A stretch of 39,196 bases of DNA. It comes from an uncultured Planctomycetia bacterium. Its GTDB lineage: Bacteria > Planctomycetota > CAYHQZ01. The notes below the pieces were generated by a model that saw only the letters and a list, made by a program, of their open reading frames with translations, did not search any database and had not been told where the DNA came from. The position numbers and the translations under genes are program-made. Position 1 is the stretch's first letter. Every line of letters starts with the position of its first letter. This document shows, piece by piece, positions 3,001 to 39,196 of this stretch. Location: the NCBI GenBank assembly GCA_964358555.1, contig CAYHQZ010000004.1:1-39196 (forward strand), in the 5' to 3' direction.

Positions 3001-4992
3001 CCCGTTCCGGACTCGCTCACGGCCTGGCGGATCCTTGCCGACTCGGTCGCGGAAAGGGGCGGGACGGCATGGACGAGCCTCGGCGTTACCGTGACGCAGC
3101 CATTCTCGTTGGACCTTTCGCTCCCGACGGACGTGACGGCAGGAGACGTCCTTTGCGTCCCCGTCGTCGTCTCGAACCACGGCGAGCGCGCAAGGGAGGC
3201 GGAGGTGACGCTGAAGGTCTCCGGGGCGGAGCTCTCGGAGGGCGGGGCGACCCGGCGGATCTCCGTCTTGCCGAAATCCGTCGCCGCCGCGGAATTCATC
3301 CTGAAGTTCCCCCGGCCGGGCGATGCGCGCCTCGAGGTCTCGGTCCGCGCGGGCGTTGACGCCGACGCGGTCGTGCGAATCCTTCCCGTCCGGCCGGATG
3401 GCCGGCCCGTACATCTCTCGACCTCTTCCCTTGTCGACGGCGAGACCGTCCTCGAGCTCGACGTCCCGAAGGACGCCATCCCGGGAACGACCCGCTCGCG
3501 GCTCACGCTCCACCGCGGGCCGCTCACCCAATTCATCGAAGGACTCGACGGGATGCTCGTCGAGCCCTACGGCTGCTTCGAGCAGACGTCGTCCTGCAAC
3601 TATCCGAACCTGATGATCGTCCGCTACCTGCGCGCGAACGGGATCCGCAAGCCCGACATCGAGAAGCGCGCGATGGACTTCCTCGCCCGCGGCTACCAGC
3701 GTCTGCTTGGCTTCGAGGTGGGCTCGAAGAGCGGCGGGTTCTCGCTCTACGGCCAGGCCCCCGCGAGCCCCTGGCTCACCGCCTACGGCCTCATGGAATT
3801 CCAGGACATGGCGAAGGTCTATCCCGTAGACCCCGCCCTCCTCGATCGGATTCGCGCGTTTTTGAAGGGCGGGATGCGCGGCGACGGCTCCTTCGCCCTC
3901 GACGGCGGCGCGCACGAACGCGTCGCAGGCGGCCTTCTCGCCGAAACGGCCTACGTCGTCTGGGCGCTGGGTTCCGAGGCGCCCGAGACAAGCCTCCGCT
4001 TCCTCCGCGAGAATCTCCCCGAGATCCGGAAGGACGCCTACCTCTCGGCCCTCGCCGCGAACGCGCTGCGCGCGAAGGACCCGCAGACCGCGAACGCGCT
4101 CGCCCGGGGCTTGAAGGCGCTCGCATTGCGGGAAAAGATCGGCGGGAAGATCGTCCTGCGGATGTCGGCCGCCCGCTCGCTCGCCTGGGGCTACGGCGAG
4201 ACGGCCGGAATCGAGGCGATGGCGCTCTCGGCCCTCGCCGTCCTCGATTCTGGCGAAAGTTTGGACTTCGCCCGCGAGGCCCTCGCAAGCCTGCAATCGC
4301 AAATCGGCCCTCGAGGCGCTTGGCACTCGACGCACGCGACGGTCCTTTCGCTCAAGGCGCTGGAGCGGGCTTCCATCGCCGGCCGGAACATGGGGCCTGC
4401 AACCGCGACCGTTCGCGTCGGAGAAGAGGCCCCCAAAACCCTCCGGATCCCCGCGGAGGAAACCGCGGCGCCTGTCGTCCTGCCGATCGAGCTCAAGCCG
4501 GGTCCGAACCGGATCCGGATCCGCACGGAAGGCGCGCCGCTGGCCGCAAGGCTTTCCTGCGAGACTTACGTCCCCTGGGCAGCCGCGGAAGCCCCTTCCG
4601 AGCCTGCGGCGAATCCCCTCCTCGCCCATGTCCGCTATGACAAAACGGAGGCGGGCCAAGGCTCGGCCGTCTCTGGAACGCTCGAAATCTCCGCGAAGGA
4701 AAGAACCGTGGAGGTCCCCATGGTCGAATGGGGCCTCCCCGCCGGATTCGAGCCGTCGGCGGCCGACCTGGACGCCGCCAAGGCGGACGGCCTCCTCGAG
4801 CGCTGGGAAATCTCCGGGCGAACGCTGCGGCTCTACTTCCCGGACCTTCCCCCCGGCCCGCCGAAAACCCTCCGCGTCCGGTTCACAGCCACCTCGAAAG
4901 GCTCTCTCGCCGCCCCCGCCGGCCGGGCCTACGAGTATTACCGGCGGGAAGCAGCCGTCGCCCTCCCACCCGTCCGGTTCACGATTCGGTGA
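1..4992 (+). CDS. Bacterial alpha-2-macroglobulin family protein (MG2/A2M/thioester), 5'-truncated by the window edge
   Basis: Frame 1 is open from nt 1 (AKRSSRKIHVLSFTPRLAAAVIALAALPAAWIGWRL, a TM-like anchor), so the true start lies upstream of the window. MG motifs (TSKFGLASAEFPL, YRPGET), the post-bait motif RLRSDFRETLAFVPEIVTDEQG...PDSLTAW, thioester PYGCFEQ (GCFEQ at 3571-3585) and C-terminal AYEYY are present. Confidence 0.92.
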   Translation, partial: AKRSSRKIHVLSFTPRLAAAVIALAALPAAWIGWRLCSPPPAACSLFWRADNEIPAGGSFIPYVQARDASSGRPMEDVRIRASLAPSNGGDRLPLGEGRTGPDGMLVCPPWKIPDAEPGTYGLVLEADGGSGRGRDRLEHAISIAPDARVALSPDRLRARPGETIRARVLLVRPGKEIPIPGWPVAIDLLDPAGNRIGRAETVTSKFGLASAEFPLDSEAPEGTYRIRAESKRLASECAVAVLSYRLPPFRVAVTPGRKWAAPGGAIEGTLEARTFDGHPVGGAKGEVRLVGPKGEVLRKAVTQLDNEGRGRFSLAPAGTAETSAPFLRCRLEAELADPAGRKTEGAASIALSAAPVFVTAVPEAGDLVRVGENRVYLVARDPEGAPYRGGLEVWREGTNPADAVPDKLSIETDAHGVAVYMLKFPKPPKETLLVRPKIASAGEPIRIPLGIRPDTALTEGALGEQAGRLLIRTDKAFVRAGETISIRAFSGEPEGIVSLALRERGRTVAVGSLTLSGGEGLATLAVPEGVSGLVALDATLDPKKGWTAWTDRRLLRVRKDSALRISATADKPRYRPGETARISFSVTDASNAGVPSAVSLVAEDESLLAITGKHPGLAQALEALDANILENPDLPLDEAAKANGKGDSIERAALAGVRQSSAENATQLLERLVTKGILHPSIAKEVSDLFLRSDSYLTPEAKAQVLANLRNSPEGGRLAAAFEMRGQPAGEIWLDSAVPQREKAAAERKKLRGDLLAALMNLVAVLSIVLVLRLVSSSSPWMGSANEYWLATTGIPLVTGTSLVACVVGIGLVPESAYARLFAINVLAMAAAHAFLSVRAWRLWNAADESAPFFLTLGLKSFLLDAWLLALAISVPIGRWDREGFLIFFFANFAIAAAIQSVRLSLGRILGATAGLGFVLAMLLPALGKSRSEARKSSARNALKQIETALVLEDTTPEAGHAVVSLNPAPPRLRSDFRETLAFVPEIVTDEQGRASLALPVPDSLTAWRILADSVAERGGTAWTSLGVTVTQPFSLDLSLPTDVTAGDVLCVPVVVSNHGERAREAEVTLKVSGAELSEGGATRRISVLPKSVAAAEFILKFPRPGDARLEVSVRAGVDADAVVRILPVRPDGRPVHLSTSSLVDGETVLELDVPKDAIPGTTRSRLTLHRGPLTQFIEGLDGMLVEPYGCFEQTSSCNYPNLMIVRYLRANGIRKPDIEKRAMDFLARGYQRLLGFEVGSKSGGFSLYGQAPASPWLTAYGLMEFQDMAKVYPVDPALLDRIRAFLKGGMRGDGSFALDGGAHERVAGGLLAETAYVVWALGSEAPETSLRFLRENLPEIRKDAYLSALAANALRAKDPQTANALARGLKALALREKIGGKIVLRMSAARSLAWGYGETAGIEAMALSALAVLDSGESLDFAREALASLQSQIGPRGAWHSTHATVLSLKALERASIAGRNMGPATATVRVGEEAPKTLRIPAEETAAPVVLPIELKPGPNRIRIRTEGAPLAARLSCETYVPWAAAEAPSEPAANPLLAHVRYDKTEAGQGSAVSGTLEISAKERTVEVPMVEWGLPAGFEPSAADLDAAKADGLLERWEISGRTLRLYFPDLPPGPPKTLRVRFTATSKGSLAAPAGRAYEYYRREAAVALPPVRFTIR

Positions 4993-5651: not shown

Positions 5652-5680
5652 ATTGTATATACGTTTTATGTTGACGTCAA
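5652..5680 (-). promoter_or_regulatory. Sigma70-type promoter of brnTA, likely leaderless
   Basis: Minus strand reads TTGACG-N17-TACAAT-N7-GTG(start). The -35 lies in the palindrome TTGACGTCAA. Confidence 0.75.
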
Positions 5681-5708
5681 GCCACCCCTCCGACAACGAT
5701 CTCCGTTA

Positions 5709-5977
5709 GGGCTCGAGACAGAATAAATGTCGCATTTGGCGGCGGTGATTTCGGAGCGAGGCAAGGAGCGCGTGGCGCCGCGATGTGGGAGGCATCGCAA
5801 GCAACGCGCGACGCGGCCGCAGCCCGAAAGCGCCGCCATCCTTCGGGAGGCCCGTCTCTTCGCCGGCTGCGTTGTCGCTCGGCCTCTGCGGTCCCTCCAA
5901 GACCGCCTTCGGCCTCGCTCCTAGCATCCGACGAAGATCCGGGCCTCCAAATGCGACAGTTATTCTGTCGCGAGCCC
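5709..5977. mobile_element. 269-bp MITE-like element with 31-bp TIRs and TTA target duplication
   Basis: Left end GGGCTCGAGACAGAATAAATGTCGCATTTGG versus reverse complement of right end GGGCTCGCGACAGAATAACTGTCGCATTTGG (29/31). TTA sits at 5706-5708 and 5978-5980. No transposase inside. Confidence 0.72.
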
Positions 5978-6023
5978 TTACGCCAGCCCCAGCCTCTTAT
6001 TCTTCGCGTCGGGGCGATGACAT

Positions 6024-7088
6024 TCATGACTCCCTCCGCACCGGGCTCCTTCCCGCGGCGCGGATGATTCGCTCGAGTTCGGCCCCCGGAAGGCCGGCGG
6101 GCGTGTCGGCGCCGGCCATGTGGGCGATCCGCTCGCCGCAGACGGTCCCGTGGAGGTCGTCGGCACCGTACCAGAGGGCGACGGATGCCACGTCCACGCC
6201 GGTCATCGGCCAGTAGGCGACGATCCGGTCCACATTGTCGAGCATCAGCCTCGAGACGGCGATCTCGCGCAGGATCGCGCGGGCCGTGGGCTTCGGGATC
6301 CGGGACAGCGCCGTCCGGGCGGGGACGAACGGCAGCGGCACGAACGCCTCGAATCCGCCCGTCTCGTCCTGCAGCGCCCGCACTCGCAGGAGGTGGTCCA
6401 CCCGGTCGGCGGCCGACTCCACGTGGCCGAAGAGCATCGTCGCGGTGGTCGGGATCCCGAGGCGGTGGGCCGTCCGATGGACGTCGAGCCACGCCGCGGC
6501 GGAGGGCTTCGCGGGACAGATCCGCCGGCGCACGCGCGGAGCGAAAATGTCCGCCCCACCCCCCGTGAGGGCGTCGAGGCCCGCCGCGCGGAAGTCCTCG
6601 AGGACCGCCCGCGCGGTCCGCCGCCCGATCCTCGCGGCGTGGAGAATCTCCACGGCCGTGAAGGCCTTGATCCGGATCCTCGGCGCCGCGCGGCGGATCG
6701 CGCGGAGGATCCGCGGGTACCAGGCGTAGGGCCGGTCGGGATGCAGCCCGCCGGTGACGTGCAGTTCGGTCGCGCCGCTCGCGGCCGCATCCGCCGCGCG
6801 CCTGGCGATCTCGGGGACGGACATCTCCCAGGCGAGCGGGTCGCCCTTCTTGCGTCCGAACGCGCAGAACCGGCAGGCGTTCCGGCAGACGTTGGTGTAG
6901 TTGAGATGGGCGTTCGCGACCCAGGAGGCCTCCGGGCCGTGCCGGCGCTCCCGGACGATGTTGGCGAGAAGGCCGAGGGCGTGGAGGTCCCCGCATGCCT
7001 CGAGGCGCTTCCCGTCGGCGCACAAAAGCCTGCGCCCGGCGAGAACCCGGCGCTCGACGAATCGAAGGGAGGCAGGAATGGGGTTCAC
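6024..7088 (-). CDS. mqnE: Radical SAM protein, aminofutalosine synthase MqnE-like (CofH/MqnC/MqnE family)
   Basis: NYTNVCRNACRFCAF (CxxxCxxC), HVTGGLHP, IKAFTAVEI, ATMLFGHVES..RVDHL..LQDETGGF, RLMLDN...AYW. Confidence 0.78.
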   Translation of the reverse strand: MNPIPASLRFVERRVLAGRRLLCADGKRLEACGDLHALGLLANIVRERRHGPEASWVANAHLNYTNVCRNACRFCAFGRKKGDPLAWEMSVPEIARRAADAAASGATELHVTGGLHPDRPYAWYPRILRAIRRAAPRIRIKAFTAVEILHAARIGRRTARAVLEDFRAAGLDALTGGGADIFAPRVRRRICPAKPSAAAWLDVHRTAHRLGIPTTATMLFGHVESAADRVDHLLRVRALQDETGGFEAFVPLPFVPARTALSRIPKPTARAILREIAVSRLMLDNVDRIVAYWPMTGVDVASVALWYGADDLHGTVCGERIAHMAGADTPAGLPGAELERIIRAAGRSPVRRES

Positions 7089-7150
7089 GCCGGGGCCAGC
7101 CTAGGGGCTCGCGGCCCCCGGGCGCAAGCGCCCCCGGATCGCCCTAACTC

Positions 7151-7385
7151 CTGAACTTTTGCGTCGGGGGGTAAAACCGGGCACGGGCGAGGGACGGGGG
7201 CTCGGCTCTTGCTCCCGGTCTCCGCGCGGTCCACGGCAGGCATACGAATTCATGGCGTTGGACCGTGCTCCGACAGGTCGCCACGATCCGAGCCCCCACC
7301 CCTCGCCCTTCTTGTTATTCGTACCTAGGAATACAGGGGTCGGCGCCGCCATGCCGCAATCGAGAGGTCGGACGCAAAAGCTCAG
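7151..7385. mobile_element. 235-bp non-autonomous element with 15-bp TIRs and a 6-bp flanking direct repeat
   Basis: CTGAACTTTTGCGTC (7151-7165) and GACGCAAAAGCTCAG (7371-7385) are 14/15 inverted. TAACTC lies immediately outside both ends (7145-7150, 7386-7391). Confidence 0.55.
7174..7308 (-). ncRNA. Candidate structured ncRNA motif of unknown class, copy 1
   Basis: 21-bp outer stem (7185-7205/7288-7308), 10-bp inner stem (7224-7233/7259-7268) and two potential pseudoknots. 88/99 ungapped identity to 39087-39185. Strand is inferred from G-U pairs. Confidence 0.5.
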
Positions 7386-9577
7386 TAACTCGCCCGTTGC
7401 GCGGAGCGAATCGCAAACCGCGTGCGGCCCTCGGGAAGGTCCGCCTCGACCTCCTCGCCGACGCGCCGCCCGAGAAGGGCGCGGCCAAGGGGGGCAAGGT
7501 AGGAAATCGCGTCCTGGCCCTCCTGGTCCCACGGCCCGAGCACGAAGATCGAGCGCTCGCCGCCGGTGGCGACGTTCGCGATCACCGCCCGGACCCCCGG
7601 GACGACGACCCCGTCCGGAATCGACTGGTCCTCGATCGCACGCACCTTCGAGAGCTCCTCCGAAAGTTCCCGGGCCCGCTGGGTAAGCAGGCCGCGGGCC
7701 CGGATGGCGCCCTCCCATTCGGAGTTCTCGGAGAGATCGCCGTGGGAGGCGGCCTCCCCGATCTGGCGGCTGTTCTCCGGGATCGTCACCTGGACCAAGA
7801 CCCGATGGGCCTCCCGCTGGCGCTCGATGCCGGCGCGGGTGCAATAGATCCAATTCTCCTCCCACCAGGGGCGGTCCTCCCGGACCACGAATTCCGGAAA
7901 GCGTTTCAAAAGCGACGCGCGGACGTAGACCGCAAGATCGACCGGGAAGTCCCCCGTCCGCTCAACGACGTCGAGGGCCGATCGGGCGACCGTCCGGTCG
8001 AGGGACTCGCAGAGCCGCCGGATGACGGTCCCGCGGCTGTCCGTCAGGAAGGAGACGAATTTCTTGAGCAGGGCCGCGTTCTCGCGGCTCGAACGGCGGG
8101 TCGTGGAAAGGTATTCGCAAAGCGACAGGACGCCGCGCAGGCGATCCGCGGGGGGCGGAATGTCCCCCGCCTCGGCGAGTTCCCCCTTTTCGGCGAGACG
8201 GATGAAAGCGGCGAGCGCCCCCGGACCGCGGGTGGCGGCGCCGAGCAGCATTTTGAAAGCCCCTCGGACGTCCGCCGCGCGGCCCTCGGACAGCAGGCAC
8301 TCGATGGCGCTTTCGGCGGCGTCCCAGCCGAGGGCGGGCAGGGCGGCGCGCAGGGACTCGGCCCACGAGTCGGGCGCCGCCTTTCGCAACGCGTCGAGGG
8401 CCCATCGGCGTTCCCGGTCGCCATCCAGGGCGCCGAGGAATGCGGCGATGGAGCCGCTCCCGCCCCGCTGGATATCCTTCACGACCGCCTCCGAGGGCGG
8501 GTCGGACGCCCGCCCGTAATGCTCGAGGACGTGGGCGGCGAGGAAGCGGCCGGCGGGCGGATCCTGGCCGGCGCGGGCGGCCGCGCGGGCCGCGAGGGCG
8601 TCGAGGATCGGGGCGCGGGAGGGCTCGTCGGCGTCGGCGAGGAAACGCCTCGCGGCCTCCACGGCCTCGGCCAGCGTCCCCGCCGCGGCGACGGCCACGA
8701 CGCCCTCGTCTGCGAGCGACAGCGGACGCTCGCGCAGCCCGAACACGGGCTTGGCGTTCGTGCCCTGGATGGAGATGTCGGCGGCCCGGGCCGCCTCCGT
8801 CCGGGCGCGACGCCACCAGGATGGCCACTCCGATTCGGTCAACACGCTCCCGATGAGGTCCTGCTTCACCTGCGTGACGCTCGCCTCCCCGCCCCGGATC
8901 CGGACGATCCGCCGGATGGCCTCCGCGGGACGGTCTTGAACGAGTTCCCGGAGCGCCGCTGGCCGGAGGATTCGCATCGCGCGCAAGTCGTCCGGATGGA
9001 GGGGGTCCAAAAACTCGATGGCCGACACCAGGGGAAACACCCGCTGCTCCCCGCCGACGAACCGGACCTCGAGTTCGCCCGTGGCCGCCCGGACGGACTC
9101 GATGACCCCCACCCCCCAGCCGCGGGGGTGGTGGACGGCCGCGCCGGCCACGAACCGCCGCAGCGTCCTAAACCGCCGCATGGCCTCGGAAAGCGGGGCG
9201 CCGCCCCCGATCCCCGACAGATCCATCCAGCGTCCGAACATCGCCTCGGCCGCATAGGAGCGCTCCAACGCCCGCTGGACGAGCGGCCGCATCGCCGACT
9301 CGTCCCCCCCGTGGGCAAGGATGGCCTCGGCGATCCGGAGGAGTTCGGCCGCGGCCCCCTTCTGGTCGAGCGATTCCGCGAGTAGCGCAAGCAGCGGCGC
9401 CGCCCGATCTTCCGCGGCCGTCCCGCGGAGGGCGTCGGCGGCCTCCAGGAACACGGGCGCGGGCACGTTTTTCGGCAGCGCCTCCAGCCAGGCGCTCTCC
9501 AGTGCATCGAACTGCGACGCGCGTGCCAGACCGGCGAGATCAACGGACGGCATGAAGGGGCGGTAGTGTGGAGGCAA
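7382..9577 (-). CDS. greA: Transcription elongation factor GreA with long N-terminal extension
   Basis: C-terminal EAASHGDLSENSEW, LGPWD and ISYLAPLGRALLGRRVGE are Gre motifs, preceded by about 570 aa of mostly helical extension. The start may be ATG 9553. Confidence 0.85.
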   Translation of the reverse strand: MPPHYRPFMPSVDLAGLARASQFDALESAWLEALPKNVPAPVFLEAADALRGTAAEDRAAPLLALLAESLDQKGAAAELLRIAEAILAHGGDESAMRPLVQRALERSYAAEAMFGRWMDLSGIGGGAPLSEAMRRFRTLRRFVAGAAVHHPRGWGVGVIESVRAATGELEVRFVGGEQRVFPLVSAIEFLDPLHPDDLRAMRILRPAALRELVQDRPAEAIRRIVRIRGGEASVTQVKQDLIGSVLTESEWPSWWRRARTEAARAADISIQGTNAKPVFGLRERPLSLADEGVVAVAAAGTLAEAVEAARRFLADADEPSRAPILDALAARAAARAGQDPPAGRFLAAHVLEHYGRASDPPSEAVVKDIQRGGSGSIAAFLGALDGDRERRWALDALRKAAPDSWAESLRAALPALGWDAAESAIECLLSEGRAADVRGAFKMLLGAATRGPGALAAFIRLAEKGELAEAGDIPPPADRLRGVLSLCEYLSTTRRSSRENAALLKKFVSFLTDSRGTVIRRLCESLDRTVARSALDVVERTGDFPVDLAVYVRASLLKRFPEFVVREDRPWWEENWIYCTRAGIERQREAHRVLVQVTIPENSRQIGEAASHGDLSENSEWEGAIRARGLLTQRARELSEELSKVRAIEDQSIPDGVVVPGVRAVIANVATGGERSIFVLGPWDQEGQDAISYLAPLGRALLGRRVGEEVEADLPEGRTRFAIRSAQRASY

Positions 9578-38987: not shown

Positions 38988-39086
38988 GGAGGGCGGATTC
39001 TAACGCCCTCCCCCCGCCCCCGACGGCGGCGCGATCCTTCGTATTCCTGGAAGGCGGGAAGAATCGGTCGCTTTCGTCAGGGATGC

Positions 39087-39196
39087 AAACCAGGCACGGG
39101 CGAAGGGCGCGGGCTCGGCTCTTGCTCCCGGTCTCCGCACAGTCCACGGCCGGTAGACGAATACATGGCGTTGGACCGTGTTCCGGACCTTCGGTC
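39087..39196 (-). repeat. Second copy of the structured noncoding motif, truncated by the window edge
   Basis: 39087-39185 aligns without gaps to 7174-7272 with 11 substitutions. Same orientation, upstream of a minus-strand gene (glgE). Confidence 0.85.

Follow-up and report, generated by a model that had tools for sequence, protein, structure and literature searches.

The DNA analysed here comprises positions 1 to 39,196 of contig CAYHQZ010000004.1 (assembly GCA_964358555.1), from an uncultured Planctomycetia bacterium, and this whole 39,196-nt stretch is called the window below. It contains a repeated, folded motif which the first-pass annotation had described as a stand-alone noncoding RNA with two pseudoknots. 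[quoted passage not shown] The motif is probably the hairpin-forming core of non-autonomous, small mobile DNA elements that make up one family, and this core would be needed in cis for their spread. Active copies may also have a role as RNA.

The repeat itself is real. Positions 7174-7272 and 39087-39185 are 88.9% identical over 99 nt without gaps (blastn), both copies are intergenic and in the same orientation, and the linker CTCTTGCTCCCGGTCTCC is identical in the two; a repeat search extended the match to 114 nt at 85%. The fold proposed for the first copy was also recovered, with its 21-bp closing stem, 10-bp inner stem and 25-nt loop. What did not stand was the extent of the repeat and its number, as the 99-nt core is part of a unit spanning 7151-7385, bounded by terminal inverted repeats and a 6-bp duplication, and this unit has many more than two copies in the genome. 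We refer to the complete form as type A. The parts of copy 1 are listed here, with the strand where one is assigned.

7151-7385: copy 1, a complete type A element of 235 bp, delimited by an alignment of 19 near-full copies and by an nhmmer profile
7145-7150: left copy of the 6-bp target-site duplication TAACTC; the same 6-mer stands at 7386-7391
7386-7391: right copy of the target-site duplication TAACTC; the same 6-mer stands at 7145-7150
7151-7165, plus strand: left terminal inverted repeat CTGAACTTTTGCGTC, complementary to 7371-7385 and conserved at type A ends
7371-7385, plus strand: right terminal inverted repeat GACGCAAAAGCTCAG, which holds the current stop codon of a greA-like gene
7185-7205: 5′ arm of the outer stem P1, pairing with 7288-7308 (helix 1 of the covariation test)
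7288-7308: 3′ arm of the outer stem P1, pairing with 7185-7205 (helix 1)
7211-7223: 5′ side of a near-invariant imperfect helix, GCTCCCGGTCTCC, pairing with 7269-7281, with conserved symmetric mismatches
7269-7281: 3′ side of the imperfect helix, TCCGACAGGTCGC, pairing with 7211-7223
7224-7233: 5′ arm of the 10-bp inner stem P3, pairing with 7259-7268 (helix 3 of the covariation test)
7259-7268: 3′ arm of the inner stem P3, pairing with 7224-7233 (helix 3)
7234-7258: apical loop of 25 nt, almost invariant in all subfamilies (invariant alignment columns)
7312-7370: right-hand module, specific to type A, with a small hairpin of its own (alignment)

The terminal inverted repeats of copy 1 are 15 bp long and complementary at 14 of the 15 positions, and alignment as well as a search for the ends showed that such repeats are common to type A copies. 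The right-hand module was found only with type A copies, except for one relic on C79 (contigs of this genome are denoted by C and a number). The type A right module contains, at window positions 7340-7346, the exact complement CGCCATG of the loop motif CATGGCG (7251-7257), and it looks like the loop region copied in inverted and interrupted form; we gave this complementarity no weight, because older copies break the match without compensation.

The genome assembly (4.1 Mb, 68% G+C, 469 contigs, 85.6% complete) breaks at repeats, and the element is prominent among its contig ends. A blastn search with 7100-7400 reported 244 high-scoring segment pairs, and the nhmmer profile, built from the 19 near-full copies, 266 matches, a number that includes weak opposite-strand self-matches caused by the palindrome; 23 of the 266 were full length and 138 were truncated at contig ends. 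Merging at 60 bits or above left 178 matches, which together occupy 26 kb or 0.63% of the assembly. Of these, 93 run into a contig end. Type A ends are seen on both sides in 23 and a single type A flank in 35, and the other 27 consist of the core only or have other flanks. The genome assembled poorly because about one contig end in seven (135 of 938, nhmmer) sits inside a copy of the repeat. We estimate the family at roughly 130-200 copies in the genome. The summed contig depth in run X1 was 700-1100 over the element and 4.6-7 in the flanks, a rough figure that is not a copy number and fits well over a hundred copies, and a second, independent assembly of the same population contained 77 loci at about 99-100% identity. 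The loop motif CATGGCGTTGG occurs 114 times in the genome, where 2.8 occurrences are expected, and the left-end repeat has 47 matches with at most one mismatch, compared with 0 for a reversed control. Long poly-G runs stand in place of the hairpin centre at C41:8051-8072 and C193:31-60, while the second assembly (L141) holds the full copy; such runs at hairpin copies are an assembly or sequencing artefact.

Outside this population, neither a DNA search in 40 other genomes of the phylum nor a model search in 150 detected the family, in a collection where the nearest kin of this genome are related at the phylum level only. The plasmid and phage collections also gave no match. One true copy (62.9 bits, E 2.6e-11) lies on a metagenome contig, L104, that is 87.6% identical to C16 over 1.8 kb. 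A hit on L102, from a scan of species genomes with the loop pattern, was judged to be chance, as it covers the loop part only (19.3 bits, model positions 49-83), and the metagenome loop-pattern matches on L107 and L152 were rejected, as the model did not match there.

To assess whether these copies are mobile DNA we examined their flanks. Fifteen complete type A copies with both flanks were compared with 270 control comparisons. The 6-mers on the two sides agreed at four or more positions in 9 of the 15 copies (6/6 in three, 5/6 in one and 4/6 in five) versus 9 of the 270 controls, and the mean match was 3.6 in type A copies versus 1.35 in controls. Copy 1, on C4, and the copy on C357 are 100% identical and have unrelated flanks with different duplications; together with the many contigs that stop about 35-55 nt into an identical type A end, they fit a recent burst of copying. 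The target that copy 1 entered, and duplicated, was a 6-bp sequence containing TA at the greA-like gene's stop codon. The insertion remodelled the stop: by reading, the gene ended in AGT TAG when the element and one duplication are removed, and it now ends in AGT TAC TGA. Finally, a contig of run X2 (201 nt, depth 2.43) joins 7132 to 7391 with 18 other letters, shows 8 differences in 124 nt of flank and has a net loss of 240 bp, near the length of the element plus the duplication. We take this single low-depth contig to represent an empty site in a relative of about 93% identity. Another candidate empty site, on C41, was rejected, being a poly-G collapse in the assembly. The terminal inverted repeats, the target duplications and this putative empty site bear out the fallback explanation of the first-pass annotation, in which the motif was mobile or associated with a transposon. 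As for the choice of target, the type A copies at C357:1782-2016, C155:1293-1519 and C165:1758-1987 lie within short tandem repeats that are AT-richer and of the GGACTTAG/GTCCTAAG kind; repeats of this kind also border the Y1 transposase genes described below. This suggests that type A prefers TA-containing tandem-repeat targets, stop codons being other targets.

The core of the element folds as a long imperfect hairpin on either strand, and folds of the two strands as single-stranded DNA reach -61.5 and -56.9 kcal/mol. Covariation was tested in 37 diverse copies against 500 shuffles, using five measures. In the hairpin 95.0% of the cells were paired, versus 88.3% in the shuffles, and 16 of the 33 pairs showed changes on both sides; none of the 500 shuffles reached the observed value in any of the five measures. 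Changes on both sides were seen in 9 of the 15 pairs of the outer stem and in 6 of the 11 pairs of the inner stem (e.g., GC in 22 copies and AU in 11), while five of the seven pairs of the imperfect helix never vary. The apical loop and the symmetric mismatched internal loops are nearly invariant, and the base of the hairpin varies. As for the two proposed pseudoknots, the first, PK1 (7279-7285 with 7251-7257), is possible in copy 1, but none of its pairs changes on both sides and all 500 shuffles do as well. Three of its seven pairs are unpaired in 9, 17 and 27 of the 37 copies, with no compensating change. Covariation thus stands behind the stems and not behind PK1. The second, PK2 (7214-7219 with 7176-7181), depends on a tail that is present only in type A flanks and lies outside the covariation alignment; judged by eye from the alignments, the tail varies (CCGGG, CCAGG, CCTGG, ACGGG, CCAAG) while its partner is invariant, so that the variation goes uncompensated.

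The core, of about 130 bp, is also found without the type A flanks. At least three further flank families that recur in the genome enclose it, so that it is linked to at least four different sets of termini. One of these families has inverted ends of the type TGCATTCCCCA...TGGGGAATGCA, and one of its copies, on C70, is flanked by a 9-bp duplication, GCGCCTCGG. Duplications measure 6 bp in type A, and a length of 9 bp is seen for at least one copy of another type (type B). We found no host elements that lack the core, the relic on C79 being the sole right module without one. A copy at C62:2330-2620 that is not of type A stands between direct repeats about 50 bp long (GGGGCGGGGTCCCCCC...GGTTGCAGGCTTCGGCCGT), which greatly exceed the duplications of 6 or 9 bp. 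In some cases a core is in frame within a gene: one is in a gene of the DHDPS family, whose Pfam domain is split into two stretches, another is in a HemN-like gene between the Radical_SAM and HemN_C domains (Pfam), and two further cases are supported by codon-position GC only. No conserved peptide is encoded, because the intragenic copies differ in frame and orientation.

Copy 2 of the window is also of type A and is placed as follows.

39069-39196: copy 2, type A, with a degraded left end and truncated by the contig end; nhmmer model positions 6-122 align to 39069-39185

From 39181 onwards copy 2 holds an inserted module of about 52 nt that forms two hairpins and is cut short by the end of the contig; its sequence matches the module in C76 and other copies. 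Of the module's 18 occurrences in the genome, 15 lie within cores, where it is found to either side of the inner stem and in a single orientation throughout. The first-pass annotation had noticed that the two copies differ around a small hairpin and had attributed this to the length of its loop. The difference is real, but it arises because copy 2 carries the two-hairpin module. A suspected fragment of the element upstream of copy 2 was dropped, as it consisted of matches of 8-12 nt only.

The genomic context of 68 internal copies was examined with a crude gene caller based on codon-position GC, which called 79% of the genome coding. Sixteen copies lie between convergent genes and eight between divergent genes, 15 and 14 are in tandem contexts in one and the other orientation, ten are inside an open reading frame (ORF) call, and for five one side lacks a gene call. 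The 68 copies showed no bias in their orientation with respect to the neighbouring genes.

Invariant loops combined with covarying stems are a classic signature of structured RNA, and the core might be a functional RNA transcribed from the minus strand (a small regulatory RNA, a ribozyme or a guide-like RNA) that was multiplied by a mobile element. As RNA, 47 of 57 copies fold more stably on the minus strand, with a mean advantage of 5.8 kcal/mol. This is also the strand on which two G-U pairs stand side by side in the youngest copies (C4, C357) and on which the conserved symmetric loops are rich in G and A. The junctions that receive the optional hairpin module are fixed, as for an expansion segment, and contigs of RNA library X4 hold pieces of the element at about 90% identity. 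However, these contigs are of low depth and could be DNA or read-through, and they do not show transcription. Wobble cells are balanced between the strands (47 on the minus strand vs 40 on the other, of 1782), and copies lie in both orientations without bias relative to genes, some of them being read through in frame in various frames and orientations. A search of the whole window against Rfam gave 0 matches at the gathering score, and in 7000-7500 at E up to 10 it gave only chance matches of the microRNA type, with E above 1; the earlier statement that the motif could not be matched to 6S, SRP, RNase P, tmRNA or common riboswitches therefore holds, and ribozymes and transposon-linked RNAs gave no match either. 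Within 6950-7550 we found neither a sigma-70-like promoter nor an intrinsic terminator, and the proximal -10 boxes previously proposed for the downstream genes could not be reproduced. The loops are not depleted of private mutations. For the stems, the apical loop and the internal loops, the singletons per column among 53 copies numbered 0.64, 0.60 and 0.58, respectively, indicating that individual copies drift freely and that conservation acts on the lineages that keep multiplying. This pattern is unlike that expected if every copy served the host or acted as an RNA. Together with the fate of PK1, these results speak against a stand-alone RNA with two pseudoknots, and we consider even the broader possibility of a structured RNA carried by a mobile element rather unlikely.

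As conservation acts at the level of lineages, we infer that the folded core of the MITE-like element is a cis-acting requirement for its propagation. Folded as a hairpin of single-stranded DNA, as a cruciform or as a transcript, the core could be what the mobilising machinery or a host factor recognises, and a transposase that is supplied in trans would cut at sites set by the terminal repeats. A more radical version, which we hold to be unlikely, is that the invariant apical and internal loops, carried on covarying stems and common to elements with different termini, define a structured nucleic acid of a new class (RNA or single-stranded DNA), which an enzyme would read at its folded centre and not at its ends. 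If true, its mobilisation or guide mechanism would be one so far undescribed among the small repeats of bacteria, and it would come with a nested mini-module of its own.

A further possibility is that the host has domesticated the copies as structural DNA or RNA comparable to REP/BIME or ERIC sequences, serving as protein-binding sites, insulators, stabilisers of mRNA 3′ ends or terminators. Many copies fill very short intergenic gaps just past stop codons (3-30 nt), convergent contexts are more frequent than divergent ones (16 vs 8), and the hairpin is very stable on both strands. Yet tandem contexts are unbiased (15 vs 14), no T-run terminator was found, and with private mutations spread evenly over loops and stems single copies do not look constrained. 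The recent identical copies and the putative empty site point to ongoing selfish spread, and the failure to find the family in the 150 (model) and 40 (DNA) other genomes of the phylum also counts against a domesticated role, which we regard as very improbable.

To get clues about the enzyme that would mobilise the element, we searched for the type A ends and for transposase and related domains. In the genome and the second assembly, matches to the type A ends belonged to small elements, to contig ends or to chance matches within genes. The domain searches of the genome reported five matches to rve and one to DDE_Tnp_1, none to DDE_3 and none to the TnpB-type domain PF07282, a UPF0236-type insertion sequence with unrelated ends, four matches to RVT_1 (reverse transcriptase), apparently of different classes, and ten matches to Y1_Tnp, all above the Pfam cut-off, which comprise about seven paralogues of about 330 amino acids (aa) and other Y1 proteins. 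No candidate enzyme in the genome can be tied to the element. The UPF0236 insertion sequence (C411:280-1960 and C449), which encodes a 511-aa UPF0236-family protein and has two copies about 90% identical, was rejected as the parent, its ends GGGTGTGGCCG...CGGCCACACCC being unrelated to the hairpin element.

Alternatively, the family might resemble REPINs, with a Y1 (HUH) tyrosine transposase of RAYT type moving the hairpin as single-stranded DNA. REPINs, as far as they are described in the part of PMC3116915 drawn on here, are high-copy, long hairpins formed by REP doublets, in which the ends, at the base of the hairpin, are conserved, the spacers vary and compensatory changes on both sides are common, and they are thought to act as single-stranded DNA or RNA. 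The present family likewise has a high copy number and a mostly extragenic position, its symmetric wobble statistics fit a DNA hairpin, and the Y1 transposase genes are there. Unlike in REPINs as that part of the source portrays them (PMC3116915), the apex of the hairpin is conserved here and the base varies, and the type A copies have clear 6-bp target duplications, which do not figure in that description. Moreover, it is not the core that borders the Y1 genes but a different set of inverted repeats, GGGGACGT...ACGTCCCC; the genes adjoin short tandem repeats that differ from copy to copy (e.g., TAACCTCCCC or GGACTAAG units), and their flanks gave no match to the element profile (nhmmer). A REPIN-like origin therefore seems quite improbable. 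The Y1 paralogues lie at C51:4753-5778, C34:2276-3340, C116:8262-9320, C246:3305-4363, C72:1108-2187, C170:6318-7400 and C224:5509-6153, and have an N-terminal Y1_Tnp (IS200-like) domain followed by a C-terminal part of about 200 aa without a Pfam match. On C396 a solo GGGGACGT-type end stands between two tandem hairpin elements.

Reverse transcriptases were also found near cores. A stretch of about 3.4 kb at C42:2261-5653 contains a retron-like, lysine/isoleucine-rich reverse transcriptase ORF (3471-4553, minus strand) and is bracketed by cores at 2101-2260 and 5654-5772, with another copy at 5853-6054; it could be an island flanked by small elements. Further reverse transcriptase ORFs are located at C70:2255-3202, C143:2074-3183 and C373:314-2335, and judging by their motifs they look retron-like, similar to those of diversity-generating retroelements and group II intron-like, respectively. 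Three of the four reverse transcriptases, those on C70 and C143 among them, are within about 1.5 kb of a core. A link to retro-mobility was nevertheless dropped, because the reverse transcriptases near cores share no family.

Several observations weigh against the view that the motif is the core of a MITE-like family. A classical cut-and-paste MITE should conserve its termini and not its centre, and here the reverse is seen. No autonomous element with type A ends was found in the genome or in the second assembly, and in 400 other genomes of the phylum the type A end motif is not multi-copy, its counts equalling those of the reversed control. Target duplications are degraded or absent in 6 of the 15 complete copies and clear for only one or two copies that are not of type A, and the empty site is represented by one low-depth contig. 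The greater stability of the minus-strand RNA folds and the library X4 contigs count here too, as do the conserved mismatched loops, which are purine-purine on the minus strand and would also suit a strand-specific RNA. Finally, the part that the core plays in transposition is one that we infer.

These points notwithstanding, the element has a length of 235 bp, no conserved reading frame, terminal inverted repeats, target duplications and dispersed copies, and the family is MITE-like in all of the defining features except a known parent element. It departs from the MITE norm in its conserved centre, its several sets of termini and its high G+C content. The section of PMC10969869 relevant here describes MITEs as having terminal inverted repeats and direct repeats that decay over time, stable stem-loops in transcripts and mutual nesting. 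The MITEs of bacteria, with the Correia/NEMIS elements of Neisseria, are presented there as non-coding elements of about 100-300 bp with terminal inverted repeats and target duplications, present in more than 100 copies, mostly intergenic, inserted into each other and forming stable stem-loops in transcripts (PMC10969869), all of which recalls the present family. In contrast to them, it shows no sequence similarity, is absent from Rfam and from the plasmid and phage collections, and is GC-rich rather than AT-rich. Its centre, that is, the apical and internal loops, is the most conserved part and not the termini, one core occurs under different termini and duplication lengths, and a parent insertion sequence was not found.

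In-frame fusions of MITEs are known, most markedly for the Rickettsia palindromic elements, which the same part of PMC10969869 describes as palindromic repeats of about 150 bp that may be located in frame within coding genes. The copies in the DHDPS-family and HemN-like genes resemble them in this respect. However, the Rickettsia elements are stated there to encode a conserved peptide (PMC10969869), whereas here frames and orientations vary; most copies of the present family are intergenic, and no sequence relation was seen. IS200/IS605-derived elements with a TnpB guide RNA differ in that the genome has no match to PF07282 and the element none in Rfam. The BOX elements of pneumococcus have a modular make-up, and the present family shares a modular build, with its termini, core, right module and optional 52-nt module. 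It has no sequence relation to BOX, and here the terminal inverted repeats and target duplications are clear. BOX is named among the small repeats of prokaryotes in the part of PMC10969869 cited.

The two genes adjacent to copy 1 in the window are as follows.

6024-7088, minus strand: neighbouring gene of the radical SAM / CofH_C type, mqnE-like (Pfam; look-alike proteins are named aminofutalosine synthase)
7382-7870, minus strand: 3′ part of ORF 7382-9577, with GreA/GreB N-terminal and C-terminal domains (Pfam; aa 577-724 of 731)

The last 150 residues of ORF 7382-9577 correspond to the GreA/GreB domains (Pfam), and its stop codon lies within the right end of copy 1. The family thus shows insertions that remodel stop codons and others that add in-frame segments to enzymes. 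Its conserved folded centre, the covarying stems and the several sets of termini hint that something besides the terminal repeats is recognised during its spread. If the mobilising enzyme came to light, this family could reveal how new small mobile elements arise from hairpin cores in uncultivated, GC-rich bacteria.

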